Assembly (NCBI GenBank): GCA_934168325.1
Contig: CAKPNG010000002.1
Location: 11 to 64,010 of the forward strand
Direction: 5' to 3'
From: an uncultured Bacilli bacterium
GTDB taxonomy: Bacteria; Bacillota_I; Bacilli_A; RFN20; CAG-826
Length of the DNA stretch: 64,000 nucleotides
Numbering within the stretch: position 1 is the first letter of the stretch; each line of letters opens with the position of its first letter. Shown piece after piece: positions 1,442 to 27,066 of this stretch. The notes beneath the pieces are model-generated. The model saw only the letters and a list, made by a program, of their open reading frames with translations. It was not told where the DNA came from and ran no database searches. A program made the position numbers and the translations under genes.

Positions 1442-1531
1442 TCAAATGACAACTTTTAGAAAGTTTCCGTAAGCTATTGAATTATTCATCCATTTTAAGG
1501 CAACAATAACTTCAGTTATTAACACTTCTTA

Positions 1532-2512
1532 TTACGACTGTATGTTCTTAGATGCGGGTAATAAAATAAATGGTTTCATTTTTAAAAGCTTAACTAATTC
1601 ATTTAACCAAATATTAATTTTATCTCTATTATCTTTCTTAGAAATCATTTTTAAAAAGGTATTATATTTATTTTTTAGCGTTGGTCCATCCATTTCTGAA
1701 ATTGCAGTTTTAATTATATCAAACGAACAAAAAGAATTATTATCATTAAGCTCATATATAGTTTTTGTCTCAAAATCATTAATCTTAATATCTTTTCTAG
1801 AACAACGAAGTCTTATTTCAGATGATAATAATACCAAAGGCAATTCATTATTATTTATTGGTGTTACCTCTTTTACCAATTCATCATTAACACAAATTTC
1901 TTCTTTTATTAAATTTGAACCAGTTTCTATATCTTTTATTCCAAGATTTTCGCATGATGAATCACTTGAATATGTCGAAATAAATTTAATATTATTCATA
2001 GACATATAATAAACAATACCAAATACCTCAGATAATAATGATTCTGGAATATTATTAATTGTAACCTTACGATTCCATAATTTTAATTGTTCAAAAGAAT
2101 ATAAAGCCCAATAATTATATAAATTAATTGCAAAATATAATTTATAGCCATTTTTATTAGCCCAATCAACTCTACTTTCAAAATTCCCGTTTGATATGCA
2201 ATATTCTTCTTTAGTTGTTGACTTAATCTCAACCATTATTTTTTCATCATTTTTTAATATAATGATTGCATCACATGACTTTTCTCCAACATTCGAAGTA
2301 AATTCCTCATCTATTGGAATAATTTCTTTGCATGCATTACATATATATAAATTACCGATAAATTCATATTCACGCTCAAGGCCTTTTATTCTTTCCTCAA
2401 AATTATTAGAATCAACACCTAATCCAGTTAAAATGTTATTAAATTGTTCCGATGTTATTTCTTCTTTAAGTGCTTTCAAGGTTTTAATTAATTCTATGCT
2501 TGGTTCATTCAT
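1532..2512 (-). CDS. Uncharacterised protein with a PD-(D/E)xK nuclease-like motif
   Basis: 326-aa ORF. SD AGGAG lies 9 nt upstream of the ATG. CDAIIILKNDEKIMVEIKST gives D81-x13-E95-x-K97, preceded by acidic residues (EREYE). Confidence 0.4.
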   Translation of the reverse strand: MNEPSIELIKTLKALKEEITSEQFNNILTGLGVDSNNFEERIKGLEREYEFIGNLYICNACKEIIPIDEEFTSNVGEKSCDAIIILKNDEKIMVEIKSTTKEEYCISNGNFESRVDWANKNGYKLYFAINLYNYWALYSFEQLKLWNRKVTINNIPESLLSEVFGIVYYMSMNNIKFISTYSSDSSCENLGIKDIETGSNLIKEEICVNDELVKEVTPINNNELPLVLLSSEIRLRCSRKDIKINDFETKTIYELNDNNSFCSFDIIKTAISEMDGPTLKNKYNTFLKMISKKDNRDKINIWLNELVKLLKMKPFILLPASKNIQS

Positions 2513-2538
2513 TATGCCACACTCCTACTTTTTATTTT

Positions 2539-3061
2539 TTATTTAAGATTTAATGTAATTGTAACAGCATCTTCTTCGCCTAATAACTCAACTAATTCAG
2601 TTTTAGTTAAATTAATATGACCTAATTTAGTATAAGACCATGTATTAGATCCATAAAAATACTATTTGGTTAGATTGATATAGACATATATCTCCAGCAT
2701 TAGTTGTAATACTACTATCATTGGATTTAATAGTGCTCCCTAATGAACCAAACTGTTCAAATCCACCATATTGATGGAGTTCTATTGTTAATCCATCTTT
2801 AGCAAGTTTCTTTAATTCTTTAACTGAATCATTATCCATCCAATAAACATCAACATCGCTACTATCTAGGGTTAAAACCAATGTTTTAGATAAATATGAT
2901 TCATCTTCTTTAGGTTCATCACTAGGTGATGTATTATCAGAAAGAATTATTGTTGGTGAGATATCATTGGTTGGTGGTGTTGAAGAATTATCATTTTTGC
3001 CACAAGCTGACAACGAGAAGACTAATATTAAAGTTACTAGTAATGTTATTAGTTTTTTCAT
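2539..3061 (-). pseudogene. Cyclophilin-like-domain lipoprotein, frameshifted in a T5 run near the 3' end
   Basis: It has its own SD (AGGTGA 5 nt before the ATG at 3061) and a lipobox signal MKKLITLLVTLILVFSLSAC. The ORF stops at 2645 after ...YQSNQIVFLWI. The +1 frame continues as FYGSNTWSYTKLGHINLTKTELVELLGEEDAVTITLNLK* down to 2539, which restores the conserved C-terminus of this domain family. Confidence 0.6.
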
Positions 3062-3976
3062 ATATTCACCTAATGAGACTTTTTTAAATCCTTTTTTAGT
3101 ATCCGCATCAAAACCTATCTTCCAAAAATCCATATCAAGCATTTTCATTTGAGGATAAGGCAATCCTTCAACACACATTTTAACTCTTGTCTCCTCTAAT
3201 TTACTATAATTAGATTCATAAAAATCAACTAACGCTAATATTGATTTAGTATTAAATCTTTTTATGCCTATATTTTCTCCCGATAATCCATCTTTGAAAT
3301 ATCTATCATATGCTGGGCAGCATCCTAGAACACCCATTAATGCCTTTGTTACTAGTGCTTCAGAAACATCCTGTAATATTTCTTCTTCCTTTACTTCTTT
3401 TCTAATCTTGTCATAATAATTAGCGATAAAATCAACTAGTTCGAATAAAAGATTCATAGTATCTTTATTCTTATATTGAAAACATTCAATTCCAAATAAA
3501 ATGTCATATTTGTGATTTAGAACTTCTTTTATGATAGGAATACGAATTCTATAATCCTTCTGCAATAAAAATGATGATCGTCTATACATTCCCCAACTTG
3601 CTAAATAGAAAGATAAATGTAAACTTAAATAATTATAGTCTGGATTATCATTTTTTCTTGCATCATGAAACACTTTATAATTATGCTCCCAAGAGCGAAA
3701 CCTTTCGTATTCATAAACTCTTAATTCATTATAAAAATCAGTTGATGCTGTTATTATTTTTTCTATAGTCTCAGGATTGTAAGTTTTTCTATTTAAAGCA
3801 TCATTATCTATGTTTAATGAAGCCTCTTTACCGTTTAAAATTGAATTTATTTTTCGTTCTAAATCATTGGTGATTCTATTTTTGAACATATTATCAGTCC
3901 AACCATAATCTCGAAGAAATCTTCTACAAATTTCTTTTCTATTATCAATAGGAAGTCCATCAATTCTTGCAATCAT
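3062..3976 (-). CDS. Uncharacterised protein (about 305 aa) whose frame runs without a stop into the lipoprotein gene
   Basis: This is the N-terminal part of the 443-aa ORF 2645..3976. It contains the motif LSFYLASWGMYRRSSFLLQKDY. I recognise no family and there is no stop before the lipoprotein ATG at 3061. Confidence 0.4.
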
Positions 3977-4041
3977 AGGCCCGCCTGTGTATGGATTTCT
4001 AGAAATATAGATTCAATTTCATCAACTATAAACTTATTCAT
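3974..4041 (-). CDS. 22-aa mini-ORF (MNKFIVDEIESIFLEIHTQAGL) whose stop overlaps the ATG of the next gene
   Basis: A strong SD (GGAGG, 4048-4052) lies 6 nt before the ATG at 4041. Its TGA overlaps the ATG at 3976 (ATGA). The downstream gene has no clear SD of its own. Confidence 0.25.
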
Positions 4042-4050
4042 AGAAACCTC

Positions 4051-5196
4051 CTATTCTTCAAGCAATTTTATAAATAAAGTAAATCTAGCTTCGATAAAAA
4101 GTGGATTAGTCTTCTTAAACATCATATGAGACACATTATCAGTTACAGTCATTAAATCTGCAAAAGTTTTTAATGTTTTAAAAGCTTCGCTGTTTTTATC
4201 TAATCCTGTAATAAAGGCAAATATAGCCATTTCGTCATTGTGACTCAAAAAATTATATAATCTTGCAACAAAGCCACAAATAACATCACAAATTTGTATC
4301 TCTCTACTAGTTTTTGAATCCAAGAAATGAACATCTAATTTATTTTCATAATCATCATCAAATTCACCCAATTGTTTAGTAATTGAAGCTTCATTATCAA
4401 AATATTTTTTGTCTTTAATTTCAATCATTCTTGAAAGATAATTAGAAAACACATCACTTGATATAACATATGGTTCATTATCTTCTAAAAAAATCAAATT
4501 TGATTTATCTCTTTTGGCTTTAATAATTTGTCTTAATAATTCTTTTGTAAAATTCTCAATATCATCTGGATCATACTTTTCATAATTATAAGCATATAAA
4601 TCTAATACATCTCTAATAAAATTATTTGCTTTATTCTTAGGGACATTTGGAAATTCATATTTTACTAATAACGCATGTAATTCATCATAATCTTGATATA
4701 AAACTTCCGTCATATAACTTTGAAGTTGTTTATAATACATAAGTGCAGCAAATTGATTTGCATCATTTTCTTCTATTAGAGAATCTAGAATATCAGTTAA
4801 CGCAAAGTGCATATAATGTAAAACATCAAAATGAATTAAAATATTGTTATTAAGAAGATATTCAAAAAACTTTCTCAATCTTGATTGATTAATTGCCTCT
4901 AAGAAATTATTATGCTTAAAAGCAAAGAAATTAAACTTAGCATCAATTGGGGTTTGTCTTGCTCCAACATATTTTAATAAATCATTAAAATCTAGTGTAT
5001 TTTTTATTGCAATCCCACCAAGAACAAAATATAAGTTTTCTAAGTCTGCATTATTGTCTTTATCATAGCCTATAATCCCTTTTTTTATATTATTGCTCTC
5101 ATCAAAATAAAAAATGTGGTTTATATGTAATGATGGAATATTCAGCTTTTCAATATTTTCTTTATATGAATTTATGAAATCATCTAATTTAGTCAT
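4051..5196 (-). CDS. DUF3800-like protein
   Basis: N-terminal HIFYFDESNN and C-terminal REIQICDVICGFV resemble the two conserved DUF3800 boxes (DESG ... QxaD). The start is taken at MTKLDDF (5196), which overlaps the upstream stop by 8 nt. Confidence 0.5.
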   Translation of the reverse strand: MTKLDDFINSYKENIEKLNIPSLHINHIFYFDESNNIKKGIIGYDKDNNADLENLYFVLGGIAIKNTLDFNDLLKYVGARQTPIDAKFNFFAFKHNNFLEAINQSRLRKFFEYLLNNNILIHFDVLHYMHFALTDILDSLIEENDANQFAALMYYKQLQSYMTEVLYQDYDELHALLVKYEFPNVPKNKANNFIRDVLDLYAYNYEKYDPDDIENFTKELLRQIIKAKRDKSNLIFLEDNEPYVISSDVFSNYLSRMIEIKDKKYFDNEASITKQLGEFDDDYENKLDVHFLDSKTSREIQICDVICGFVARLYNFLSHNDEMAIFAFITGLDKNSEAFKTLKTFADLMTVTDNVSHMMFKKTNPLFIEARFTLFIKLLEE

Positions 5197-6148
5197 TGAA
5201 AGAATCACCTCTTTCTTTAAGGCTAAACTCTTTATCACTTTCAGTAAGTTTAATAATTTCTATATTTTTTTCATTAGCTATTCTAAACAGCTCTTCGTAT
5301 TCATTAGATTTTGTATCAGCCTTACATCCTACATAAATCTTTATAATTTTAGTAGGCATTGTATATAGACTCAATTCTTCTAATTTAGAAACTCTATCAC
5401 TACTTGGGGATAAGATACATCTAACCACTACTTCATATTGCCAATCTAATGACTTAACAATAAATGGTTTAGATATACATCTTATTAGTCCTTTATCATT
5501 AACATCAGCTTCTTCGTTTGATAGCATATATCCAAGCACTCTTCTTGTAGTATCTTCTAAATCGAATTTGCATCTTTTCTTAGAATACTTAACATCAAGA
5601 AAATCCTTATCAGGTCTATCAAATTCAATACATATGCCTTTATGTTTGTCTCCATAATGTGACCACATTAGAATAGAATCAAATCGTTTACTAAAGCATG
5701 AAATTAAAGCGTTATTTCGCACTTCTTTTACTTTTTGAATAATTTCACTAGTAAATTTCTCTTTCAATTCATCAAAAGAATTTTCACCATTTTTAGCAGC
5801 ATATCTAACTATCCATCTAGTTAATGTTTGAGCGCCAGGAATAGAGTCATAATACTTATTCTTTTTTGATAATTTCAAATTAAGATTAATACCGAATCTA
5901 TCCCACTTCATAATAAGCTTTGTTAAAAAGCTAACTTTAATATTCTTATTATTTAACAACTTCAAAAATTCTTGAATTAAATAGTACTCAACTATTATAG
6001 AAATTGATTTTTCAATATCGGTATCATCAAAATCTATAACACTATCAAAAGGATCATTATAGTTTTGTGGGCTATTAAGTGCAACAGCATTACTTTCTAA
6101 TATCTTAATTGCACTTTTTAATGATGTATACTTGTATATTTTTTCCAC
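5189..6148 (-). CDS. DUF2971-like protein
   Basis: KIYKYTSLKSAIKILESNAVALNSPQNYNDPFDS and ISCFSKRFDSILMWSHYGDKHKGICIEF match the characteristic DUF2971 boxes. It has a GTG start with SD AAAGGAG. Confidence 0.6.
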   Translation of the reverse strand: MEKIYKYTSLKSAIKILESNAVALNSPQNYNDPFDSVIDFDDTDIEKSISIIVEYYLIQEFLKLLNNKNIKVSFLTKLIMKWDRFGINLNLKLSKKNKYYDSIPGAQTLTRWIVRYAAKNGENSFDELKEKFTSEIIQKVKEVRNNALISCFSKRFDSILMWSHYGDKHKGICIEFDRPDKDFLDVKYSKKRCKFDLEDTTRRVLGYMLSNEEADVNDKGLIRCISKPFIVKSLDWQYEVVVRCILSPSSDRVSKLEELSLYTMPTKIIKIYVGCKADTKSNEYEELFRIANEKNIEIIKLTESDKEFSLKERGDSFND

Positions 6149-6287
6149 ACTAAATGACTCCTTTCTTTTGTTTTGGAATTATTTTAATCATTTCTCTATA
6201 AAATTAACAAAAAAAGAAATAAAAACTTTTCACATATTGTATCACAATTCCATTATAACTTCCTCTATTTAGAAGAAAAAACTTACT

Positions 6288-6307
6288 ATAATTGTTATTA
6301 TGAGAAG
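6288..6307 (+). repeat. 20-nt inverted repeat IR-A (ATAATTGTTATTATGAGAAG), 5' boundary of TRD1
   Basis: Exact reverse complement of 10739-10758. Both copies are in the same codon phase (N-C-Y-Y-E-K). Confidence 0.85.
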
Positions 6308-6763
6308 GTTGGCCAGATCATCAAAATAATAGATAATAAAAAGATGCCTATATCTCATAATATTAAAAACAGATCATTTCAAAAATTATCATTTCTATCA
6401 ACATCATCTATGGGACAAACAATATTGTCATCAGATTTAGATATTGAAGGAATCCCCGTTTATAGCGCTACTATGGATGATTCTCCGTTTGGTTACATAA
6501 AAGAAACAAAAAATAAAATGTATCTTACTAAAGGAGATATAGTAATTCCTGCTAGAGGTAATTCGATAGGATATGTAACTTATATTAATGATAGTTTGGC
6601 AACATGTACTCAGACTACAATTGCATTGTATCCAATTACTAAAGTTATTAGTAAATTTGTATACTATTATTTTAAAGCATATAAAGACTACTTGTTTGAA
6701 TATATTGGTGGAGCAATTCCACAAATTACATTAAAAATGATAAATGAAATTATAGTTCCGCTC

Positions 6764-7078
6764 CCACCTCTTCAAGAACAAGAACGAATAGTTAATAAAA
6801 TTGATAAATTATTTGAATTAGTCGATAAAATAGAAAAGGATCAGCAAGAACTTGAAGAACTAAAGAAACAAGCTAAGGATAAGGTCTTAGAGCTTGCTGT
6901 TACTGGTAAACTAGTTAAACAAGACCCTAACGATGAACCTGCTTCAGTCCTTCTAGAACGTATTAAAGCTGAGAAAGAAAAGCTTATTAAAGAAGGAAAA
7001 ATCAAGATAGAAAAGGCTGATTTAGAACCAATTTCTGATGATGATAAAAATTATTATGAGAATATACCATCTAATTGG
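6764..7078 (+). repeat. 315-bp perfect inverted repeat IR-B (hsdS central conserved region)
   Basis: I compared it segment by segment with the reverse complement of 9971-10285 and found them identical. It encodes PPLQEQERIVNKIDKL...DDDKNYYENIPSNW. Confidence 0.9.
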
Positions 7079-7556
7079 ATAGTTACTAGTCTAAATAGCA
7101 TATGTACAAAAATTGTTGATGGAAACCACAATCCACCAAAAGGATGTCAGCAAAAAACAGATTATTATATGTTGTCATCACAAAATATAGTAGACGGAAA
7201 TATTATTGAATTAAGTAAAGTTAGATTTTTAACCAAAGATCAATTCCTTGAAGAAAATAAAAGGACGAAGTTATCCATTAACGATATTTTATTTACAAGT
7301 GTTGGTTCAATAGGGCGCTCTTGCGTTTTTAACCATAATTATAATATATGTTTTCAAAGAAGCGTTTCTGTTATAACAACTTTAATTAATCCTTATTATG
7401 TAAAATTATTCTTCGATGCCCCAATGCAACAAGTATGGTTTACCAAAAAAGCATCTGGGACAGCTCAAAAGGGTTTTTATTTAAATCAATTAAGTAATCT
7501 ACTTATAGCTGTTCCACCAATATATGAACAATCCAAAATCGTAAAAAAATATAATA

Positions 7557-8052
7557 TTATAGCAAAGAATTTAACAACTTAAATTTGCGACAAATCCTTT
7601 CCTGTTCATCTAAATTTGGAATTGCGACAACTTCATTTAATAAGTCGTTTCTTTCTATTCCAGGTATCATGCTTTTAGCTTTTATTTGCAATTTATATAC
7701 CGTATTTAAAATTAACAAAACATTAAATTGAGTATTAATATAAGATGTAATTCCCATAATTTGTCTAGCAATATGTAAATCACCAATAGTATTTATTGCA
7801 ATTTTGCCGATGGTTCCTTTGCATGTAATTAATATATCATCAATATGAGAATTACAATACTTTATTTTTGTATATCTATTTACGATTAAATTATTGCTAG
7901 TAAAATTACTTGCTCCTGTCATATATGGAATGTCATCATCGCATCGAATACTATGATATTCGTTTGGAGTCAAATCATATCCTGATGTTAATCTTATTAC
8001 ATTTGATAATCTACAAACGCACCACGAACTATTAATGTTCTTATAATAATTT
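7557..8052 (-). other. Silent hsdS TRD2 half-cassette (no start codon or promoter)
   Basis: The frame is open from about 8095. It begins ...RNYYKNINSSW, which mimics the end of the central repeat (KNYYENIPSNW), and ends with an hsdS C-terminal helix (IPNLDEQERICRKFKLLNSLL). A 10-nt match AAATTATTAT lies at 8043-8052. Confidence 0.7.
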
Positions 8053-8096
8053 CTATAAGTAAATAATAGGCTCCATAATCGGAACCTATTTTCTTT

Positions 8097-8900
8097 TTAC
8101 CATGTGACGATTTTATCTACTATAGCTTGTTGTTCGCTTGCTGTTTTTCTTAAATATATTCTAGTTGTTTCAATAGATTCATGTCCCATTAAATCAGCCA
8201 GAAGAGCTATGTCATTATATTTTTCTAAGAAGTTTTTGGCAAAGCGATGTCTAAATGAATGAGGATAAACAACTTTAGGATCAATTCCATATTTCACTGC
8301 ATAATTTTTAAGTTGTTGTGATATTCCTCTTGTGGTGATTCTATCTCCAAATCGATTAAGAAAAATATATCCACTTTCTATATGAACTGTTTCATTTAGC
8401 CAAGTTGTGGTTTCTTTTCTTAAAGCTATTGGAATATAGATTCTTCTAATCTTTCCTCCTTTAGTATATAAATCTATAAAACCAAGATTTACATGTTCAA
8501 CTTTAATTTTAATAAGCTCACTAACTCTTGCTCCAGTAGCACATAAAAATCTTACAATAAAGTACCATTCTTTATTGTTTTCTTGTTTTAATTTCTTTTT
8601 GAAAAAAACGTAATCAGCATCACTAATTACGTTCTCAAGGAATGTTCTTTGTTGAACCTTAACTGATTTTATTCGCAGGTTCGGTTTCTTGATAAATTCC
8701 AAATATTTATTTATAGCCTGTAATTTTAAATTTACAGTTTTAGCTTTGAAATTCTCAATTAAGTATGCCTTCCATGCTAATAGATTCTTTTTTGTAAAAT
8801 CGTCATAGTTACTAATGTATCCTTTTACAGCAGTGATATAAGCAGATACGGTGTTTGGTGCCAAATTATTTGACACTAAAAATTTTTTAAATGCATCCAT
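8097..8900 (-). CDS. Tyrosine site-specific recombinase (XerC/D-like), candidate shufflon invertase
   Basis: ATGARVSELIKIK (Arg box), HSFRHRFA (HxxR) and LMGHESIETTRIYL (His/Tyr) are present. The start is taken at MDAFKK (8900), preceded by AAGGAGG. The 8945 start looks like an ORF-caller extension. Confidence 0.85.
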   Translation of the reverse strand: MDAFKKFLVSNNLAPNTVSAYITAVKGYISNYDDFTKKNLLAWKAYLIENFKAKTVNLKLQAINKYLEFIKKPNLRIKSVKVQQRTFLENVISDADYVFFKKKLKQENNKEWYFIVRFLCATGARVSELIKIKVEHVNLGFIDLYTKGGKIRRIYIPIALRKETTTWLNETVHIESGYIFLNRFGDRITTRGISQQLKNYAVKYGIDPKVVYPHSFRHRFAKNFLEKYNDIALLADLMGHESIETTRIYLRKTASEQQAIVDKIVTW

Positions 8901-8982
8901 AATTCGTCCTCCTTTTTGAATGGATAAATGAATTATAAAATACATTTGATTTGTTTATTTTTAAGTAACTACAATAACATAC

Positions 8983-8995
8983 AAAAATTATTATG
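8983..8995 (+). repeat. 13-nt inverted repeat IR-C (AAAAATTATTATG), 5' boundary of TRD2 cassettes
   Basis: Reverse complement of 9991-10003 (inside the expressed hsdS). The same sequence also occurs in direct form at 7046-7058. All copies share the same codon phase (K-N-Y-Y). Confidence 0.7.
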
Positions 8996-9516
8996 GGCAG
9001 TTACCGATTAACTGGGCATGGACCAACCTATCTTCTTTATCTAAATCAATTACGGATGGGACACATAAAACGCCAAAGTATTTAGATTCAGGAATACCTT
9101 TTTTGTCAATTGCGAATATTTCTTCTGGAAGTTTTGATAATTGCCCGAAATATATTTCACCTGATGAACATAATCAGCTAACTAAGAGGGCAAAACCTGA
9201 ATATGGCGATATTTTATTGTGTAGAATCGGAACTTTAGGTAAGCCATTTATTGTTAATATGACTTTTGATTTTAGTATCTTCGTAAGTCTTGCTCTAATA
9301 AAACCAATAGCTATCAAACAAAATGAATATTTAAAAATGGTATTGTCTTCTCCATTTATTAGTAACCATATCGATAGAATAAAAGTGGGTGGCGGAACAC
9401 ATACATATAAAATTAATCTTGATAATTTGTTAACATTTCCTATACCTCGTCCTCCACAAAAAGAACAAAATGAGATTATATCTAAAGTAACTGAATTAAT
9501 GAATTTACTTTATTGA
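8983..9516 (+). other. Silent hsdS TRD2 half-cassette (no start codon or promoter)
   Basis: The frame opens just after a TAA at about 8965. It begins KNYYGQLPINWAW...DGTHKTPKYLDSGIPFLS (a typical TRD start) and ends PPQKEQNEIISKVTELMNLLY. The 13-nt AAAAATTATTATG at 8983-8995 equals the end of the central repeat. Confidence 0.75.
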
Positions 9517-10948
9517 TAATTCTTTTTTGCTCATTTTCTGGTGCTATAGGTAATGCAAAATTATTAAATGCTTTTTGTGTCAACTGATTAATAGTAGTTG
9601 TTCCACTAGTTTTTTCAAGTTGATTATAATAATATTTTGTTTGCAAAAACAAATATATCCATTTTGAGTATTCAGATTTGCATATAGCCATAAAAGCACC
9701 AAAAGTCATCGGTTCATTGATATTTGAAACAAATGCTGATTTTCCTACTAGATGCTTACTGCCATTTCTAGCACATATTATAATATCATTATTATTAACA
9801 ACCAATTTGCTAGGAATTCGGCTATTCACTCGAATAACATCATTAAAATCAAGCTTGCCATTTTTTATATTACTCGAACGTAGTACAATTATACCATTAT
9901 CGCAAATATTATTAGGACTATATGTTAATCCAATGTATGAATCAGAAATACTTTGAATTTTTGCAATAGACCAATTAGATGGTATATTCTCATAATAATT
10001 TTTATCATCATCAGAAATTGGTTCTAAATCAGCCTTTTCTATCTTGATTTTTCCTTCTTTAATAAGCTTTTCTTTCTCAGCTTTAATACGTTCTAGAAGG
10101 ACTGAAGCAGGTTCATCGTTAGGGTCTTGTTTAACTAGTTTACCAGTAACAGCAAGCTCTAAGACCTTATCCTTAGCTTGTTTCTTTAGTTCTTCAAGTT
10201 CTTGCTGATCCTTTTCTATTTTATCGACTAATTCAAATAATTTATCAATTTTATTAACTATTCGTTCTTGTTCTTGAAGAGGTGGTATTAATATTGATAA
10301 AGACTTGAATTTAGATAAAGGTATACCACCTATTATGCCCTGCATATTATCTCTAAATTCGTTGTTAAAAGTTATGCTATTAAAGAAATAGTAAACAAAT
10401 TTTGATATCACTATAAAAGGGCTAACGCACGCCAATTTATTTACAAAGCATACATCTTTATTTATCAATCCGATTTTATTACCCGCATTTGCTCCTTCTA
10501 GGCAAATAAGAATAGAATTTTGTTTTGCCCTTTTTAGTGAATAATCCAATGGAATATAAAGACCATTCTCATAATTTATATTCCCATTTAAATCAATATC
10601 TTTTGTAGCAATATAATGATGAAAACTATCTAATTTAATTGATAAATCGATTTTTTGTTTATCATTAAGGCTATTACCAGTATATATATTGGAAAAATAT
10701 TGTAATTGAAGGCAAGACCATCCTGAAGGAATGTCATTCTTCTCATAATAACAATTATCGTCATCACTCCAATAGATATCCGATTCTTCTACTTTTGATA
10801 TTTTCTTCTCTTTTTCAAGTTTTTTTCTTTCTTCTCTTATTCTAGCTAAAAGTTCCTCAACTGGCTCATCGTTAGGATCCTGTGGAACCAATTTTCCACG
10901 CATAGCTAAATCAAGAATTTTTTGTTTTAATGCTTTAGTATCTATCAT
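9482..10948 (-). CDS. hsdS: Type I R-M specificity subunit HsdS (expressed copy)
   Basis: 488 aa with two TRDs separated by the conserved coiled-coil region. Its ATG overlaps the hsdM TGA (ATGA at 10945-10948). Confidence 0.9.
   Translation of the reverse strand: MIDTKALKQKILDLAMRGKLVPQDPNDEPVEELLARIREERKKLEKEKKISKVEESDIYWSDDDNCYYEKNDIPSGWSCLQLQYFSNIYTGNSLNDKQKIDLSIKLDSFHHYIATKDIDLNGNINYENGLYIPLDYSLKRAKQNSILICLEGANAGNKIGLINKDVCFVNKLACVSPFIVISKFVYYFFNSITFNNEFRDNMQGIIGGIPLSKFKSLSILIPPLQEQERIVNKIDKLFELVDKIEKDQQELEELKKQAKDKVLELAVTGKLVKQDPNDEPASVLLERIKAEKEKLIKEGKIKIEKADLEPISDDDKNYYENIPSNWSIAKIQSISDSYIGLTYSPNNICDNGIIVLRSSNIKNGKLDFNDVIRVNSRIPSKLVVNNNDIIICARNGSKHLVGKSAFVSNINEPMTFGAFMAICKSEYSKWIYLFLQTKYYYNQLEKTSGTTTINQLTQKAFNNFALPIAPENEQKRIINKVNSLIQLL
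9971..10285 (-). repeat. 315-bp inverted repeat IR-B, partner copy
   Basis: Exact reverse complement of 6764-7078. Confidence 0.9.
9991..10003 (-). repeat. 13-nt IR-C copy inside the expressed hsdS
   Basis: CATAATAATTTTT is the reverse complement of 8983-8995. Confidence 0.7.
10739..10758 (-). repeat. 20-nt IR-A copy inside the expressed hsdS
   Basis: CTTCTCATAATAACAATTAT is the reverse complement of 6288-6307. Confidence 0.85.
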
Positions 10949-12414
10949 TCTTCAATATCCTTAATTAATTCTTTTAATTGAGCCACTGAATCGCTGATAC
11001 TTTTTGATTTTTCTTCAATCATATCAACAAGTTGATGAAGTGTATAATCTTGCTTTTCTTCTTTAATATTTGGATTTTTAAAGTCAATATTATATGTTTC
11101 TTCAATCTTGTCTTGCTTTACAAAATAAGCATTTATATCGCCATTATCTCTATTATTCCACCATCCACGAACGCCTTTTAAATGTTCAGCTGTAAATGGT
11201 TTAGTTTTACTAAAGCTTCTATATCCTTCAGGAAGTGGTACTTGATAATACCAAATTCCATCAGTTTTTTCACCTTTATCAAAGAATAAAATATTTGTTG
11301 TAATACCTGCATAGAATAATCCAGCTGGAAGTTTTACTATTGTATGTAAATTGCATTCAGACATTAATTTTTTCTTGATGTTAACATAAGCATCATCTGT
11401 ATTAAATAGGAAACCATCTGGTAAAATGATGCCTACTCTACCATTTTTAGCAAGTCTATATAAAACTAGGCATACGAATAGATTGGCTGTCTCTGATGTT
11501 CTATATGATTCAGGAAAGTTCGCATCTTCTCCTGGAGCAATTTCTCCACCAAATGGAGGATTCATTAAAACAACATCAACTTTATCACTTTCAGTATATT
11601 CTGTGACATTCTTAGCTAATGATGATGCATATCTAATATTAGAACCATCTGTTCCATTTAATAACATATTTGTAACACACAATAAATATGGTAATGGTTT
11701 ACATTCACAACCAATTATATTATCTTGCATACTATCAAGAGCTTCTTGTGTATTATGTTTCTTTAGAATATGTTGAATTGCAGAAACTAAGAATCCACCA
11801 GTACCACAAGCAAAGTCTGCAATTTTTTCGCCTGGTTTTGGATCTAACATTTCTGCCATGAAATCAGTTACTGGTCTTGGGGTATAAAATTCTCCAGAAC
11901 TTCCTGCATTTTGTAATTCTTTAAGAATTGATTCATAAATATCATTAAATACATGTCTATCTTCATATTTATCAAAATCTATTTCATTTAATTCGTTAAT
12001 GACTTGTCTGATTAAAGTTCCATTAATCATATAATTATGAAGACGTGAAAATACATACTTTACAATAGCAGATCTTTTTGGAGTTGTTTCATCTACAGAC
12101 AAATCTCTTAAAGTGGGGAATAATTTATTATTGATAAAATCAACTAATTCGTCACCTGTTAAAGAATCACCTGTTGGTTTTCCTTCAGAATCAACTTTTT
12201 CAACTGCCCAATTACGCCATCTATATTCTTCTGGAATAATAGATTTATAGTTATCTATTTCAATTTCGTATTCATTACTTTCTTTTAATTCATCATATAC
12301 TTTTAAGAAAAGCATCCAAACAAGCTGATTGATACGTTGAGCATCTCCATCAACTCCATTGTCTTTTCGCATTATTTTTCTTACTCTTTTAACTAATCCA
12401 TTTAAATCTGCCAT
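10945..12414 (-). CDS. hsdM: Type I R-M N6-adenine DNA methyltransferase HsdM
   Basis: 489 aa with the NPPFGG catalytic motif (VVLMNPPFGG), the AdoMet motif DFACGTGGFL, and an HsdM N-terminal domain. Confidence 0.92.
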   Translation of the reverse strand: MADLNGLVKRVRKIMRKDNGVDGDAQRINQLVWMLFLKVYDELKESNEYEIEIDNYKSIIPEEYRWRNWAVEKVDSEGKPTGDSLTGDELVDFINNKLFPTLRDLSVDETTPKRSAIVKYVFSRLHNYMINGTLIRQVINELNEIDFDKYEDRHVFNDIYESILKELQNAGSSGEFYTPRPVTDFMAEMLDPKPGEKIADFACGTGGFLVSAIQHILKKHNTQEALDSMQDNIIGCECKPLPYLLCVTNMLLNGTDGSNIRYASSLAKNVTEYTESDKVDVVLMNPPFGGEIAPGEDANFPESYRTSETANLFVCLVLYRLAKNGRVGIILPDGFLFNTDDAYVNIKKKLMSECNLHTIVKLPAGLFYAGITTNILFFDKGEKTDGIWYYQVPLPEGYRSFSKTKPFTAEHLKGVRGWWNNRDNGDINAYFVKQDKIEETYNIDFKNPNIKEEKQDYTLHQLVDMIEEKSKSISDSVAQLKELIKDIEE

Positions 12415-12415
12415 A

Positions 12416-14737
12416 TTATGCTGCTCCTGCTACTGAATATAAATTGCTTTTTACAAATTGAACTGCTTGTAAATAGTTATCTCTACCGCCAAATATTTCC
12501 TTAATAATTTGTTTTGGTGTTCCAAATTCTTTAAATTCATCAAGTTTAAGAATATTAATGTCATCAACATCATCTATTCCTTCATCACAATATTTGTCTA
12601 ATAATCTATCAATTACTTCTCTAGCAATTCCTGTATATTTATCAAGAAGTTCAGACTTTTTAATGCTCTTTACTCTTTCGCTTCTTGTTAATGGTTTTGC
12701 TTCATATGCTATATAACATATTAAATCAAAATCATCCATATCTTCAACACCTAATTCTGCTCTAATTTGCTCTAGCAAAACTCCATGATAAACTAATTCA
12801 TCAACTATAGCTTTATGTTTTTTCTCACTAGTCCATTTTTGAATAAATTCATCTAAAGTTGCATACTGGTTTAAGATATTTTTCTTTGTGTAATTGATTA
12901 ATGATTGTTTTGTTAAATTACCATCAGGGTCTAAAATTGATACTTCTTCACCCATAATCGTGACTTTGTTTCCGTCAATATGATATACAGGATTTTGGCC
13001 TTCGCCTCCTCCTCCACCACTTGACCTGTGACCGTTATCATCCACATACTCAATTGGTCCATCCCACTTAGGATCAGCAAACAATCTTGTTACTTGTCTA
13101 AAATCAATTATAATAAATTCGTATTTTCTGTCAGCTTCTCTTAATCTAGTTCCACGACCAATAATTTGTTTAAATAAAGTCATAGATGATATTACTTTAT
13201 CTAATACTATTAATTTTGCTGTTTTACAATCCACACCTGTTGTCATCAAATCGGATGAAGTAACAATACATGGGTCAATATCCATATTAAATTCTGCTTT
13301 TGCGAAATCGGTTAAATCAGCTTGTGCTGTTGGAGAATCACCTGTAATTCTAGTTACATATCGAGGATTTTTTCTACAAATATCTAAATTAAGATTCCAC
13401 AACTCTTGTCTTAGTCTTTCGGCATGAACTATATTGCAACAGAAAACAATAGTTTTTTGGTATCTATCTGTTTCCTTTAAATAATTTGTTATTTGTTTAG
13501 CAACCTCTTTTGTTCTTGAATCAACTATCAATTTTTTATCAAAATCATTTGTAGTATAAATTCTGTCTTCTAATAAATTTCCGTGAATATCTAATTGACC
13601 AGGATATGGTCTATATCCTTTAACATCTATATCAAGGAATTTCTTCATAACTTTATATGGAGCTAGGAATCCATCTTCTATACCTTGTTTTAGAGAATAA
13701 ACATATACTGGTTCTCCAAAATATGTTTTAGCTAAATCAACTTCTTGTTCATCATCTTCATCATCTGTCTTCTTGCCTTTTAAATATACCTTTGGAGTTG
13801 CAGTCATACCAATTTGAATTGCGCTTTCAAACCAATCAAGTATTTCTCTCCAATGAGAGTCTTCTTTAGCACTTCCTCTATGACACTCATCAACAATGAT
13901 TAAATCAAAGAAATCTCTAGAAACTTGCTTAAAGGCTTCTAAGTTTGATTCTCCTTTTTCGTTATCTAATTGTTGATAAAGTCCAAAGAATATCTCATAA
14001 GAAGTATCTATTTTACCTTTTGTAATGATAGTTTTAGATGCACCAAAAGGAGCAAACTCTTCATTAAAAGGTTTGCCAATTAATACATTTCTATCAGCTA
14101 AATATAAAACTTTTTTAACTTTACGCATTTGTTTTAACTTCCAAACAATTTGGAATGCAGTATAGGTTTTACCTGTTCCTGTAGCCAAAACAATTAAAGC
14201 TCTACGTTTTCCATTAGCAATTGCTTCTAATGTTTTATCAACAGATGCCTTTTGATAATATCTAGGTCTAAAATCAGGATCAGTATAAAAAGGAAATTCA
14301 ATTAACTTCAATTGTTCTTCAGTTAAATTCTTTTCGTTAATATAACGTTCTCTTAATACTTCAGGTGATGGAAATTCAGCCATTGTCAAGTCTCTTTCAA
14401 GTCCGGTTATCAAATCATGTTCAACGAAACCATGACCATTTGAACTATACGCAAACGGAACATTTAAAAGTCTTGCATATTCTATTGCTTGAAGTAAACC
14501 TTGTCCAGGAGTATGATCTTCGTCTTTTGCTTCAACAATTGCCAAATTAGTATTATTAACATATCTTAATAAATAATCAGCATATTTTCTTTTTCCTCTA
14601 GTCATTACTCCATTTGATGAAACATGAACACGTCCATCAGTGAAATATTCCATGCGATAATTAGCCCAACCCGCTCTATCAATCGCAGGTGTTATATATA
14701 ATCTTTTTACATCTTCTTCAGAAAACTTTTCAGGCAT
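12416..14737 (-). CDS. hsdR: Type I restriction endonuclease/helicase subunit HsdR
   Basis: 773 aa with Walker A LATGTGKT, DEAH-type box VDECHRGS, and helicase motif VI QIIGRGTR. A 1-nt gap separates it from hsdM. Confidence 0.92.
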   Translation of the reverse strand: MPEKFSEEDVKRLYITPAIDRAGWANYRMEYFTDGRVHVSSNGVMTRGKRKYADYLLRYVNNTNLAIVEAKDEDHTPGQGLLQAIEYARLLNVPFAYSSNGHGFVEHDLITGLERDLTMAEFPSPEVLRERYINEKNLTEEQLKLIEFPFYTDPDFRPRYYQKASVDKTLEAIANGKRRALIVLATGTGKTYTAFQIVWKLKQMRKVKKVLYLADRNVLIGKPFNEEFAPFGASKTIITKGKIDTSYEIFFGLYQQLDNEKGESNLEAFKQVSRDFFDLIIVDECHRGSAKEDSHWREILDWFESAIQIGMTATPKVYLKGKKTDDEDDEQEVDLAKTYFGEPVYVYSLKQGIEDGFLAPYKVMKKFLDIDVKGYRPYPGQLDIHGNLLEDRIYTTNDFDKKLIVDSRTKEVAKQITNYLKETDRYQKTIVFCCNIVHAERLRQELWNLNLDICRKNPRYVTRITGDSPTAQADLTDFAKAEFNMDIDPCIVTSSDLMTTGVDCKTAKLIVLDKVISSMTLFKQIIGRGTRLREADRKYEFIIIDFRQVTRLFADPKWDGPIEYVDDNGHRSSGGGGGEGQNPVYHIDGNKVTIMGEEVSILDPDGNLTKQSLINYTKKNILNQYATLDEFIQKWTSEKKHKAIVDELVYHGVLLEQIRAELGVEDMDDFDLICYIAYEAKPLTRSERVKSIKKSELLDKYTGIAREVIDRLLDKYCDEGIDDVDDINILKLDEFKEFGTPKQIIKEIFGGRDNYLQAVQFVKSNLYSVAGAA

Positions 14738-14739
14738 AA

Positions 14740-14943
14740 TTATTTCACCTCTTTCGCTTCAATGCAATTTTCTTTAAATAAACTTTTAAGTCGTTCTTTT
14801 GCAAGTATAGTTGGCTCGTGATGTCCCTTTTCCCACCTATTAACAGTGCTAAAAGAGACTCCAAGCATATCTCCAAGTTGTTGTTGAGAAATATTTAATT
14901 TCACTCTTAGTGCTAGTATCATTTCAGCATAATTAATTTTCAC
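14740..14943 (-). CDS. XRE-family helix-turn-helix protein immediately upstream of hsdR (possible controller)
   Basis: 67 aa. LNISQQQLGDMLGVSFSTVNRWEKG is a canonical HTH_3. It has a GTG start with SD GGAGGA, and 2 nt separate it from the hsdR start. Confidence 0.8.
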   Translation of the reverse strand: MKINYAEMILALRVKLNISQQQLGDMLGVSFSTVNRWEKGHHEPTILAKERLKSLFKENCIEAKEVK

Positions 14944-14968
14944 AGAGCTTATCCTCCAAATCGATTAC

Positions 14969-14989
14969 AATATATGATATATTATAGCA
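14969..14989 (-). promoter_or_regulatory. Putative extended -10 promoter (TGcTATAAT) with an overlapping 15-nt palindrome AATATATgATATATT
   Basis: On the minus strand, TGCTATAAT is the reverse complement of 14981-14989. The palindrome spans 14969-14983, between the -10 and the SD of the XRE gene. Confidence 0.35.
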
Positions 14990-15385
14990 CTTTTTTCTCA
15001 AATTCTCTATTGTTAAAAATTTGTCAAAATATGCACAAAAAGTTACAAAAATATAATATATTTTTTCATTTATTTACCATTGTCTTAATTAATAAGATTT
15101 AAAAATGTCATTTTATGATGTTTTTGATATGTTTTATGAAATTTTAATATTTGTCAATTAATAATAAATAATTAATTAAAAATAGAATCTATTAAGTAGA
15201 CTCGTCAAAAACCACTTAAAGATTCTAAACTCCTATTATATAGGTAATAAAAAATAATGCTAGTAATATAATAATAAAAGTTAATATATTCTTAATTAAT
15301 GTAAAAATAATATTGGTCAATTATAATGATCAATATTATAAATATCTATATATTAAAATCTAAAAAAATAATTAAGTTTTGCGAG

Positions 15386-16471
15386 TTATTTAATTGGTTT
15401 TCTATAGAATTTACCATATACTTGATCCATTGGTACTACATTAATAAATACAGATGGATCTATTTCTTTAGTTATTTTAATTACTTTTTTAACTTCACTT
15501 TTTCTTACTGCAATATCAATAATATATAAGTCTTTACCACTATATCCACCTTTACCTTGAATGATTGTACATCCATGAGGAATAGCAGCAATTATAGATT
15601 GAGATAAATTATAATTAGGAGTAATTATTTTAAGTTCATATTTCTTATTTGTAGTATTAAAAGTGTCAACTACTAATGAAACTACAATCATATATAAGAT
15701 AGTAAACATAAATATAATAATAGCAGTTTGTGGTTCTACTCTTCCAAGTCCTCCACTAATTGGGAATAAAGATTCATCTAGTGGCATAACTGATAATATA
15801 GAATAAATAGTAACTACTATTAAATTAAAGAAAGCACTCCATTTACCGATTTGAACTGATTTTCTTTCACTAATATAAAAAGCAATAATATCAGTTCCTC
15901 CAGCTGAAGTATCTATTTTATAAGCTAAAGCGGCTGCAATTCCAGTACAAACTCCAGCAAATAAAACTCTAGCTACAGTTTCAGTAGCCATCTTCGCTCC
16001 TATTAAATTAATAATATTATTAGGATCTCTACTTTTAATTAAAATACCAAATAAACTAGCAAATCCAACATTAAGCATTGAATATATAGCAAACTTCTTC
16101 CCTACTTTAAAAAATCCTAAAAAGAATAAAGGTATATTAACTACAAAATAAAAACACCAATACATAATATTATAATGGATTTCACTAGTCATAAATTCTA
16201 ATCCACATAACTTTAAAATAGTTGCTAAAGATTGAGATATGCCACTAGCTCCACAACTTGCTAAATGATAAATTGTAACGTTAACTCCTTTTAAAGCATC
16301 TCCCATTGCTTGGAAATTAGGTTGAATAAAGCAGTTAAATCCAAAAGCAAATACTAATCCAGATAAAGCAGTTACTATAGTCATATATCCATTTTCTAAT
16401 ATTGATCTTAAAATAGGATGATCGAATAAATAATTCTTAAGGTTCTTTTTAAATTTAAATAATCTATACAT
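15386..16471 (-). CDS. YitT-family membrane protein (with C-terminal DUF2179-like domain)
   Basis: 361 aa and polytopic. It has the GGTDIIA motif and a C-terminal soluble domain (GCTIIQGKGGYSG...VFINVVP) typical of YitT. Confidence 0.75.
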   Translation of the reverse strand: MYRLFKFKKNLKNYLFDHPILRSILENGYMTIVTALSGLVFAFGFNCFIQPNFQAMGDALKGVNVTIYHLASCGASGISQSLATILKLCGLEFMTSEIHYNIMYWCFYFVVNIPLFFLGFFKVGKKFAIYSMLNVGFASLFGILIKSRDPNNIINLIGAKMATETVARVLFAGVCTGIAAALAYKIDTSAGGTDIIAFYISERKSVQIGKWSAFFNLIVVTIYSILSVMPLDESLFPISGGLGRVEPQTAIIIFMFTILYMIVVSLVVDTFNTTNKKYELKIITPNYNLSQSIIAAIPHGCTIIQGKGGYSGKDLYIIDIAVRKSEVKKVIKITKEIDPSVFINVVPMDQVYGKFYRKPIK

Positions 16472-27051: not shown

Positions 27052-27066
27052 AATGTTACCTCCTAA

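Follow-up and report, generated by a model that had tools for sequence, protein, structure and literature searches.

A probable PsrA-type hsdS inverton with a predicted 2 x 4 allele repertoire in an uncultured gut Bacilli lineage

RESULTS

Organization of the hsd operon and its silent hsdS modules

The stretch of DNA analyzed here, a window of 64,000 nucleotides, carries a tightly packed restriction-modification (R-M) operon whose genes overlap or lie no more than 2 nt apart. As listed in Table 1, a small XRE-type HTH gene is followed after 2 nt by hsdR, and the stop codon of hsdM overlaps the ATG of hsdS in an ATGA, in line with the coupling described in an earlier note on this DNA. HsdR scored 956.6 bits against NCBIfam NF046051 (cut-off, 550) with full-length coverage, and the HsdS of the operon matched PF01420 in two stretches, corresponding to two target recognition domains (TRDs). 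Judged by HsdR, HsdM, and the two-TRD HsdS, the locus is a type I R-M system of the EcoAI family (type IB). In one public contig, L004, hsdM is interrupted by a nonsense codon; thus, the system is not necessarily active in all strains. The host belongs to an uncultured low-GC human-gut lineage resembling Bacilli/Mollicutes, and the names "Mollicutes bacterium" and "Clostridium sp. CAG:288" are attached to protein clusters from the window.

The operon is followed downstream by a silent hsdS copy with two domains, a pair of silent cassettes with one domain each, and one tyrosine recombinase gene. Only the hsdS copy at 9482-10948 has a start codon coupled to hsdM; the silent copy lacks the N-terminal conserved region and is not positioned behind hsdM. 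The tail of the TRD2d cassette overlaps that of the expressed hsdS. In other sequences the single-domain cassettes are found joined to the central conserved region (CCR), TRD2c in P0010, P0011, and P0086 and TRD2d in P0009 and P0048. Because the six TRDs are only 21 to 29% identical in pairwise comparison, the earlier count of two TRD1 and four TRD2 modules is correct, and this divergence suggests that target sequences differ from allele to allele.

Table 1. Features of the hsd locus in the window
Feature	Position	Strand	Details
Whole locus	6288-14943		HTH-hsdR-hsdM-hsdS operon, downstream silent pieces, and recombinase
Small HTH (XRE-type) gene	14740-14943	-	First gene of operon; Pfam HTH_3, 9.1e-12
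hsdR	12416-14737	-	EcoAI/FtnUII family (type IB) restriction subunit; NCBIfam NF046051; Pfam ResIII, EcoEI_R_C
hsdM	10945-12414	-	Methyltransferase subunit; Pfam N6_Mtase (PF02384), 2.4e-61; HsdM_N (PF12161)
Expressed hsdS	9482-10948	-	488 aa; two Methylase_S stretches; N-terminal conserved region 10745-10948, TRD1a 10286-10744, CCR 9992-10285, TRD2a 9482-9991
Silent hsdS'	6290-7582	+	Pfam Methylase_S, 2.2e-27, two stretches; module map: TRD1b 6290-6763, CCR 6764-7057, TRD2b 7058-7582
Silent TRD2c cassette	7557-8054	-	Headed by s3; Pfam Methylase_S (PF01420), 1.3e-08
Silent TRD2d cassette	8983-9516	+	Headed by s4; Pfam Methylase_S (PF01420), 3.6e-07
Tyrosine recombinase, PsrA family (by homology)	8097-8900	-	267 aa; PF00589, 1.4e-27
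Terminator-like hairpin	8065-8090	-	Directly after recombinase stop, inside recombinase segment; 11-pair stem, then T-rich tail
315-nt inverted repeat	6764-7078 / 9971-10285	+ / -	100% complementary; CCR plus 7 codons
20-nt inverted repeat	6288-6307 / 10739-10758		Exact; extends to 23 nt at 96%
13-nt inverted repeat	8983-8995 / 9991-10003		Exact
10-nt core	7048-7057 / 8043-8052		Exact; within 22-nt stretch at 86%
Site s1, TRD1-type	6288-6307	+	Head of silent hsdS' copy
Site s2, TRD2-type	7048-7057 (core)		Within left 315-nt arm, 6764-7078 (+)
Site s3, TRD2-type	8043-8052 (core)		Heads TRD2c cassette; encodes RNYYKN
Site s4, TRD2-type	8983-8995		Heads TRD2d cassette; encodes KNYYGQ
Site s5, TRD2-type	9991-10003		Within right 315-nt arm, 9971-10285 (-), inside expressed hsdS
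Site s6, TRD1-type	10739-10758	-	ATAATTGTTATTATGAGAAG; encodes NCYYEK; in expressed hsdS

Six in-frame sites at the TRD boundaries

Each boundary between a conserved region and a TRD encodes ..DD(N/K)xYY.. and holds a recombination site. Two sites are of the TRD1 type (20 nt, ATAATTGTTATTATGAGAAG), and four are of the TRD2 type with the core AAATTATTAT, two of them terminal in the 315-nt CCR repeat. An in-frame TTATTAT (Tyr-Tyr) is present in the same codon phase at all six junctions. The 20-mer matched twice in the window, against 0.00 matches expected by chance; the 10-mer by itself is not significant (8 occurrences versus 4.3 expected), and four of the eight are the four TRD2 starts. The 20-nt, 13-nt, and perfect 315-bp repeats and their common codon phase had been recognized in the earlier note and were recovered exactly; its 10-nt repeat stood as an exact core, while the coordinates 7046-7058 given for one copy were slightly loose.

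A PsrA-type recombinase on its own segment

The recombinase gene lies within the invertible region, as previously noted, on a segment of its own (8057-8982) between sites s3 and s4. AGGAGG precedes its ATG at 8900 by 7 nt, and a hairpin, called as a terminator by consensus match only, follows its stop codon. The product is Xer-like with a complete set of catalytic motifs (R...K...HxxR...H...Y249). Over 267 aa it shares 61% identity and 79% positives with WP_000651186.1, annotated as "tyrosine-type DNA invertase PsrA," and its Tyr249 aligns with the catalytic Tyr247 of PsrA, the residue mutated in psrA-Y247A (PMC7096588). By full-length homology, the catalytic Tyr, and the target site, we classify the protein as a PsrA-type (clade 1) hsdS invertase. 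Relatives with 67 to 92% identity, in Bacilli, Bacteroidales, and Clostridia, adjoin hsdS genes bearing the same GGTGAYGATAA....TATTATGAGAAG junction motif as here, and a site motif for the clade, ..GATAA....TTATGAGAAG.., is common to 57 of 80 loci of recombinase relatives.

Alternative arrangements in public assemblies

We compared the window with public metagenome contigs whose flanks are 98 to 99.98% identical. Six configurations of the locus were found (the window, L004, L005, L006, L091, and L096/L097); all are among the 32 predicted (see Discussion), and the others lie one or two inversions from the window. At the breakpoints, the partner switches exactly within AAATTATTAT or the 20-mer, with both reciprocal junctions on the same contig; in L004, for instance, s6 has crossed over with s1. 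No junction between a TRD1-type and a TRD2-type site was seen among the observed arrangements. The recombinase gene points the same way as the hsd operon in the window and L091 and the opposite way in L004, L005, L006, and L096, and its segment was also found flipped alone in other contigs. Thus, inversions at all four repeat classes have occurred among near-identical natural strains.

Intact open reading frames behind hsdM were found for six of the eight predicted alleles (1a2a, 1a2c, 1a2d, 1b2b, 1b2c, and 1b2d). A diverged lineage carries 1a'2b' behind hsdM, and 1a2b was found only there; 1b2a was never found at the expression site among the public contigs. Chimeras 1a2a and 1b2a also occur at the silent position (P0005-7 and P0017). 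The proposal of a shufflon giving up to 2 x 4 HsdS proteins is thereby borne out by full-length chimeras, six configurations, and breakpoints in the very repeats it had named. L004, L005, and L088, which carry 1b2b, 1a2c, and 1b2c at the expression site, respectively, are 2 SNPs apart in the 10.2-kb left flank. L004 and L005 differ by 1 more SNP in the 6.8-kb right flank, giving 3 SNPs in 17 kb in total, and are three inversions apart, which indicates that inversion far outpaces point mutation.

DISCUSSION

Our data indicate that the locus is very probably a phase-variable type I (EcoAI-family, type IB) R-M locus, that is, a PsrA-type "epigenetic inverton." As in the definition of Huang et al. 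(2020), it holds four hsdS genes or cassettes, four inverted-repeat pairs, and an encoded invertase homologue; reading frames are kept in the inversion products, and inversions occur at the repeats, as shown between samples. In the model that we propose, HsdS would be made only from the copy directly behind hsdM, composed of the N-terminal conserved region, TRD1, the CCR, and TRD2. The recombinase in the middle of the locus would invert segments flanked by two sites that are of one type and face in opposite directions, and the 315-nt repeat may also serve homologous recombination. Each inversion would be conservative and in frame and would swap TRD1 or TRD2, while recombination between the two sites on either side of the recombinase would flip only the recombinase segment. 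The model predicts 32 configurations and 8 HsdS proteins (2 TRD1 x 4 TRD2), each expected to have a different bipartite target for methylation and restriction. It is the recombinase that probably catalyzes the inversions, and switching would take place within clones at appreciable rates. For the organism, this implies populations heterogeneous in methylome and in restriction of phages and plasmids.

Since the arrangements come from different samples, they prove past inversions rather than ongoing switching within one clone. It could be argued that they are fixed strain polymorphisms left by infrequent, unprogrammed (RecA-type) exchange between homologous hsdS sequences, with no phase variation on ecological time scales and a recombinase that is irrelevant or inactive. 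The 315-nt perfect repeat is indeed long enough for homologous recombination, and pneumococcal IR2 and IR3 inversions survive deletion of psrA (PMC4948785). Nonetheless, we consider this explanation very unlikely: crossovers also occur at cores of 10 to 13 nt, too short for efficient RecA recombination, and the products are reciprocal and in frame every time. Moreover, the three inversions between contigs only 3 SNPs apart, an intact recombinase gene with all catalytic motifs, and the conservation of this recombinase at 61 to 92% across phyla beside the same site motif all speak against it. That the contigs were arbitrarily joined across repeats, with no biological inversion behind them, is scarcely credible. 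Rearrangements at 10-, 13-, and 20-nt sites cannot arise from k-mer ambiguity, because assemblers of short reads typically work with k-mers exceeding these lengths (one contig name, for example, includes k141), which makes mis-joins there unlikely; the same configuration recurs in the independent assemblies L096 and L097, and six independent studies and assemblers yielded only configurations that the site model allows. The 315-nt repeat, on the other hand, is longer than short-read k-mers, and several contigs break exactly at it: L003, at 2892 nt, has the same length as the inter-repeat segment, and L090, L092, and L093 end inside the CCR. Additionally, the Logan contigs L087 and L088 diverge mid-gene and may be chimeric.

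A division of labor, with the recombinase needed only for the short sites (10 to 20 nt) and inversions at the 315-nt CCR repeat mostly due to host homologous recombination, has a serious, if minority, chance of being right. By analogy, inversion at IR1 (15 bp) of the S. pneumoniae cod locus is strictly PsrA dependent, while psrA mutants still show inversion at IR2 (298 bp) and IR3 (85 bp); the complete identity of the CCR repeat also fits frequent exchange or gene conversion. Against this, the recombinase can produce the same result, since a TRD2-type core terminates the CCR repeat, and the two routes are inseparable by sequence alone.

Returning to the recombinase-driven inverton, its six sites might constitute an "address code" of two letters for a single PsrA-family recombinase, combined with operon read-through that renders the switching rate itself phase variable; we put this forward as a speculative and rather doubtful extension. 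The arms of an imperfect dyad (GATAA at -8 to -4 and TTATG at +4 to +8) would be conserved around a 6-bp overlap region, read as TTGTTA in the TRD1 class of sites and as AAATTA in the TRD2 class, and identity of the overlap regions would keep TRD1 and TRD2 exchanges orthogonal. The layout of arms and class-specific spacers was found across Bacilli, Bacteroidales, and Clostridia, with two spacer classes in 40 of 48 loci. Read-through could come into play as the recombinase gene occupies an invertible segment of its own, the orientation of which varies. Identification of recombinase target motifs was named as future work by Milman et al. (PMC9881135), and this conserved architecture with class-specific spacers, crossing phyla within a recombinase family, is the one aspect here that may merit further work. 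Our comparison also illustrates that the activity of a shufflon can be demonstrated purely from public metagenome assemblies, here through six configurations, six or seven of the 8 alleles, and crossovers at 10-nt cores.

Comparison with known systems

Inverted duplicated hsdS genes accompany about 6% of type I systems (PMC7394358), and the catalogue of invertase-positive invertons runs into the hundreds (PMC7672463). The likeness to SpnD39III (ivr) pointed out in the earlier note is right at the family level, as the sequence identity to annotated PsrA indicates. The S. pneumoniae cod locus (PMC4190663, PMC4948785, PMC7096588) likewise has an hsdR-hsdM-hsdS operon followed by silent hsdS pieces, a homologous recombinase gene, psrA (creX), inside the invertible region, and in-frame inverted repeats of three size classes (15, 85, and 298 bp, compared to 10 to 13, 20, and 315 nt here); in both loci, a copy of the short core is contained in the long repeats. 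SpnD39III has six phases according to the title of its report, whereas 8 alleles and 32 configurations are predicted here; in addition, the R subunit here is of the EcoAI family (type IB), and the host is an uncultured gut bacterium. Gene order is also shared with pRUMAL02 of Ruminococcus albus 7 (NC_014825.1), where hsdR-hsdM-hsdS, a small inverted ORF, a recombinase gene (product 70.7% identical to ours), and an inverted hsdS follow one another. That locus, listed by Huang et al. as a plasmid-borne inverton (PMC7672463), is simpler, with one full silent hsdS and a small inverted ORF annotated as hypothetical, and resides on a conjugative megaplasmid.

In its combinatorial logic, the locus parallels Bfa9343I of B. 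fragilis NCTC 9343 (PMC7641763, PMC7672463), which has the same XRE-hsdR-hsdM-hsdS operon, hsdS genes in full-length and half form (two of each), and 2 N-terminal x 4 C-terminal modules for eight alleles; in both, a silent-to-silent inversion is required to bring one module into play. Bfa9343I has 16 configurations, compared to 32 here, because the recombinase segment also flips here. Its invertase, BfiA, belongs to clade 3 and is encoded outside the inverton, whereas ours is of clade 1 and lies inside. Its four inverted repeats (16 to 47 bp) are mutually unrelated, and none of the published IR1 to IR4 matched the window with up to 3 mismatches allowed; membership in the BfiA group was thus rejected, alike as the two 2 x 4 loci are in their working.

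At the level of the site, the locus resembles Tde35405VII of T. denticola (invertase TdiA; Huang et al. 2020, PMC7672463), in which a clade-1 invertase also lies inside the inverton, inversions were verified by PCR, and the alleles methylate different motifs. At the DNA level, its recombination site is essentially identical to ours: the experimentally verified IR2 (ATAATTGTTATTAT) is found without a mismatch in each arm of our 20-nt repeat (s1 and s6), and IR1 (TTGTTATTATGAGAAGTT) matches the repeat with 1 mismatch. The T. denticola locus is limited to two single-TRD cassettes and three alleles, with exchange of TRD2 only, whereas TRD1 is exchangeable here too, and the TRD2-type sites here use a different core, AAATTATTAT. 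Altogether, these comparisons firmly support a further member of the PsrA-type (clade 1) hsdS inverton family, not novel in kind, its 2 x 4 logic having already been described in B. fragilis, and confirmatory for the field; they extend the host range of such invertons to an uncultured, low-GC Bacilli/Mollicutes-like lineage of the human gut.

Organization of the hsd operon and its modules

The window carries a compact hsd operon followed by additional hsdS modules and a tyrosine recombinase gene, as listed below. HsdR scores 956.6 bits (cut-off, 550) against the NCBIfam model "EcoAI/FtnUII family type I restriction enzyme subunit R," and the stop codon of hsdM is overlapped by the ATG of the expressed hsdS. 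Within the expressed HsdS, the central conserved region (CCR) repeats the N-terminal conserved region (NCR) in diverged form, with 57% identity across 68 aligned residues in a BLASTP local alignment, while the six target recognition domains (TRDs) of the locus are just 21-29% identical in pairwise comparisons. A promoter scan of the window returned 63 matches, with 60.8 expected and hence no excess. Since an Rfam search of the whole 64-kb window at gathering thresholds found no RNA families, the shufflon contains no RNA element.

Features of the hsd locus, in window coordinates
Feature	Position	Strand	Evidence or remark
Compact hsd operon	9482-14943	minus	
HTH_3 gene, 67 aa	14740-14943	minus	Pfam
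hsdR	12416-14737	minus	Pfam ResIII and EcoEI_R_C
hsdM	10945-12414	minus	N6_Mtase (2.4e-61) and HsdM_N
Expressed hsdS, 488 aa	9482-10948	minus	Pfam Methylase_S
Expressed HsdS, part 1: NCR	aa 1-68		
Expressed HsdS, part 2: TRD1a			
Expressed HsdS, part 3: CCR	aa 222-319		
Expressed HsdS, part 4: TRD2a			
Single-TRD cassette TRD2d	8983-9516	plus	Pfam Methylase_S
Tyrosine recombinase, 267 aa	8097-8900	minus	Phage_integrase; AGGAGG ahead of gene
Terminator-like hairpin, 3' of recombinase	8065-8090		
Single-TRD cassette TRD2c	7557-8054	minus	Pfam Methylase_S
Head-less two-TRD copy TRD1b-CCR-TRD2b	6290-7582	plus	Pfam Methylase_S
315-nt inverted repeat	6764-7078 / 9971-10285		100% complementary
20-nt inverted repeat (s1 / s6)	6288-6307 / 10739-10758		exact; 23 nt at 96%
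13-nt inverted repeat (s4 / s5)	8983-8995 / 9991-10003		exact
10-nt core (s2 / s3)	7048-7057 / 8043-8052		exact; within 22 nt at 86%

A repeat search of the window reproduced the inverted repeats that the earlier note had listed. TTATTAT, two Tyr codons within ..DD(N/K)xYY.., is common to all six conserved-region/TRD junctions and lies in one phase at each, which bears out the accompanying claim of a shared codon phase. The six recombination sites form two classes: TRD1-type sites (s1 and s6) share ATAATTGTTATTATGAGAAG, and TRD2-type sites (s2 to s5) share AAATTATTAT, with s2 and s5 forming the very end of the 315-nt CCR repeat. Chance predicts 0.00 occurrences of the 20-mer in the window, which has two; the 10-mer, with 8 matches versus 4.3 expected at 28% GC, is unremarkable alone, and the four TRD2 heads make up half of those eight matches.

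Recombinant alleles and arrangements in nature

We searched the expressed HsdS against a collection of 5.8 billion proteins and compared the 120 best matches module by module using BLAST. Among them, the predicted chimeric structures were found as full-length proteins with module identities of 98-100%, in agreement with the earlier proposal that each inversion would leave an intact hsdS. Proteins of the expressed type, which carry the NCR, represented alleles 1a-2a (P0001 and P0002), 1a-2c (P0010 and P0011), 1a-2d (P0009), 1b-2b (P0060), 1b-2c (P0086), and 1b-2d (P0048), as well as 1a'-2b' of a diverged lineage (87% / 82%; P0013). Silent-type proteins, lacking the NCR, represented 1a-2a (P0005-7) and 1b-2a (P0017). 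In more distant HsdS homologues (P0019-P0058), TRDs about 55-59% identical to TRD2a occupy position 1 and TRD1a-like domains occupy position 2, so TRDs swap HsdS halves over evolutionary time; this half-swapping was seen among the distant homologues and not within the locus of the window.

Ten window segments were mapped onto the contigs encoding the chimeras and onto further contigs obtained by a pattern scan of metagenome contigs. Two Logan contigs, L087 and L088, were used for hsdS alleles only.

Arrangements of the locus in the window and in metagenome contigs, read from hsdM to the flank (REC, recombinase segment)
Sequence	Arrangement
Window	1a, CCR, [2a/2d]+, REC+, [2c/2b]+, CCR, 1b
L004	entire unit inverted between 20-nt sites
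L005	1a, CCR, [2c/2b]+, REC-, [2a/2d]-, CCR, 1b
L006	1a, CCR, [2a/2d]-, REC-, [2c/2b]+, CCR, 1b
L091	1a, CCR, [2a/2d]-, REC+, [2c/2b]-, CCR, 1b
L096 and L097	1a, CCR, [2a/2d]+, REC-, [2c/2b]-, CCR, 1b

An inversion model that permits exchange solely between same-class sites in opposite orientation yields 32 configurations and 8 expressed alleles. All six observed configurations are among these 32, each at a distance of 1-2 inversions from the window. At the breakpoints, the sequence 5' of the core matches one window site and that 3' of it another, with the switch falling within AAATTATTAT or the 20-mer, and the rearranged contigs examined also carry the reciprocal junction. In L005, for example, the CCR runs through GATAAAAA, TTATTAT, and AAGAACATT into TRD2c, and the reciprocal junction to TRD2b reads CTTATAGAAA, TTATTAT, and GAGAATATACC. 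Such paired junctions are the signature of conservative reciprocal exchange.

We considered whether assembly artefacts could have created the junctions at the short sites and rejected this explanation, because cores of 10-20 nt are shorter than typical short-read assembly k-mers (k141 in one contig name), which makes mis-joins there unlikely. Assemblies do break at the 315-nt repeat: L090, L092, and L093 stop inside the CCR, and L003 corresponds precisely to the 2892-nt segment between the repeat arms. The contigs L001, L002, and L003 (2.9-3.2 kb, from three other samples) match window 7079-9970 at 100% identity and terminate at this repeat or close to it, L003 exemplifying an invertible segment assembled as an orphan contig; orphan pieces of this kind get misannotated as plasmids (Huang et al., PMC7672463). 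L087 (6302-6633) departs from window homology inside the recombinase (window 8325), and L088 (10947-11623) does so inside TRD2b (window 7382), each continuing into unrelated genes. These breaks could be shufflon-locking deletions or chimeric contigs.

The flanks of the locus give a measure of the pace of inversion. Two mismatches over the 10,180-nt left flank separate L004, L005, and L088, and one mismatch over the 6,779-nt right flank distinguishes L004 from L005. Yet these near-identical contigs express 1b2b, 1a2c, and 1b2c, respectively, with L004 and L005 three inversions apart; therefore, inversion in this lineage is much faster than point substitution. Reciprocal, in-frame exchange has taken place in nature at all four repeat classes, and the contigs, each from a different sample, provide strong indirect, between-sample evidence for programmed switching.

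Search for exchange between site classes

The two site classes have a 12-nt sequence, TTATTATGAGAA, in common, and a model that also admits TRD1-type by TRD2-type recombination gives 320 configurations and 14 alleles, with half-size HsdS proteins or a TRD2 in position 1 as predicted products. No cross-type HsdS product was present among the 120 best HsdS homologues, nor was one present among the 5 metagenome contigs that include the NCR end. We thus rejected cross-type recombination for lack of evidence, although it may occur at low frequency. In sequence, the sites resemble an imperfect dyad: a spacer of 6 nt, TTGTTA in the TRD1-type and AAATTA in the TRD2-type class, separates GATAA at -8..-4 from TTATG at +4..+8. 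Tyrosine recombinases require identical overlap regions, so the differing spacers would account for the lack of cross-class products in these searches. In related loci, the inverted pair has a common spacer in 45 of 48, an agreement that is partly trivial in that the CCR copies are long repeats, and two spacer classes are present in 40 of 48. Control of exchange by class-specific spacers is a lead rather than a result.

The recombinase and its proposed action

The recombinase is Xer-like. A PDB search returned Xer-type structures only, the best being 4a8e, a Pyrococcus XerA-type protein (E = 2e-18), and the XerA, XerC, and XerD matches in an NCBIfam search were all below cut-offs. Its catalytic motif set is complete, comprising Arg in ATGARVSEL, Lys in TKGGK, HSFRHRF, GHES, and Tyr249 in RIY. 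Using tblastn, we found 19 relatives in annotated plasmid records, including one annotated as "tyrosine-type DNA invertase PsrA" (WP_000651186.1, from a Streptococcus dysgalactiae record). Pairwise alignment of the two proteins showed 61% identity and 79% positives end to end, and placed Tyr249 opposite PsrA Tyr247, the residue altered in the psrA-Y247A strain (PMC7096588). The recombinase is also 97% identical (258/267) to NCBI proteins named [quoted passage not shown] (P0138); the plasmid collection also contains M. arginini records, whose copy is just 63.7% identical. These values suggest either a very recent horizontal cassette transfer or contamination or mis-binning of the assemblies with the 97% match.

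By analogy with the PsrA literature, the encoded recombinase would bind the junction motif and exchange strands within a short overlap. The terminal core would make the long CCR repeat usable too, and homologous recombination may act on this repeat as well. The eight HsdS proteins are predicted to give a population as many as eight specificities of methylation and restriction, and the possible benefits of switching include phage defence, epigenetic regulation, or both.

Host and genomic surroundings

The host is an uncultured low-GC gut bacterium (window GC, 28%), and genetic code 11 reads the window genes normally. SecY of the window belongs to a 90% cluster named "Mollicutes bacterium," and HsdM clusters with "Clostridium sp. 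CAG:288" and "Bacilli bacterium." From 27000 to 39200 on the minus strand, GC rises to 33-36% along a run of short ORFs that includes SecY (28710-30044) and presumably represents the S10-spc-alpha cluster of ribosomal-protein genes.

A block of ~15 kb (104-15015), comprising the HTH gene, hsdRMS, the shufflon, DUF2971 and DUF3800 genes, and ~5 kb more, is 98-99% identical in other contigs, and its neighbours on the hsdR side vary: a gene for a 361-aa membrane protein in the window; an element of ~6 kb that encodes a 561-aa N6 methyltransferase and two serine recombinases in L004, L005, and L088; and CotJB, Mn-catalase, desulfoferrodoxin, and SurE in L006, L096, and L098. This variation may mark the block as a mobile defence island or as a hot spot for rearrangements; an exact look-up of the adjacent gene at 15386-16471 returned no record. 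The shufflon is directly adjoined by DUF2971 and DUF3800 genes (4051-6148), and the genes downstream in L004 and L006 add a faint Abi_2 match and an IS (rve) element, all typical defence-island company. A 443-aa ORF at 2645-3976 on the minus strand, whose last ~140 aa open with the lipoprotein-like signal MKKLITLLVTLILVFSLSAC, corresponds in related contigs to two genes, of 301 or 323 aa and of 95 or 174 aa (Cyclophil_like2 match), and may be two same-frame genes or a fusion. hsdM is intact in the window and in L005 (ERZ28564323); in L004 (8535-10004; ERZ28564492 scaffold_1), 99.98% identical to L005, a TGT-to-TGA nonsense change affects Cys203 in the SAM-binding motif FACGTGGF. The entire R-M system may be off by mutation there, or the change may be a consensus error.

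Distribution and relation to known systems

One scan of GTDB species representatives returned 311 recombinase relatives. The best 80 of these, 67-92% identical, belong to MAGs of Bacilli (Anaeroplasmataceae and "Scatoplasma" among them), to many Bacteroidales such as Segatella copri, to Clostridia, and to one Melainabacteria MAG. An hsdS conserved region lies near the recombinase in 57 of these 80 loci, where it ends in (F/Y)(K/R)G(D/E)DNx(Y/H)YEK, with nucleotides GGTGAYGATAA....TATTATGAGAAG. The same cassette has spread across phyla, in agreement with the account of clade 1 given by Huang et al. (PMC7672463).

Inverted duplicated hsdS genes occur in ~6% of type I systems (PMC7394358), and 827-1140 invertase-positive loci are known across 16 phyla (PMC7672463). 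The finding is real and well supported, and the kind of system is already known. In Treponema denticola, inversions at Tde35405VII, whose invertase TdiA is a PsrA-like clade-1 enzyme, have been verified and run via IR1, 5'-TTGTTATTATGAGAAGTT, and IR2, 5'-ATAATTGTTATTAT (Huang et al. 2020, PMC7672463). Each arm of the 20-nt repeat in the window contains IR2 exactly, and IR1 fits this repeat with one mismatch; the published inverted repeats of B. fragilis (BfiA, clade 3), S. agalactiae, and E. faecalis had no window match at ≤3 mismatches. By family, the locus belongs to the PsrA-type (clade 1) epigenetic invertons. Its logic is that of B. fragilis Bfa9343I, with a pair each of full and half hsdS genes and 2 x 4 = 8 alleles, whereas the latter uses another invertase clade and other repeats. 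Furthermore, the window locus has 32 configurations rather than the 16 of Bfa9343I, because two sites bound the recombinase segment, which flips alone, as seen when the window and L091 are compared with L006 and L096.
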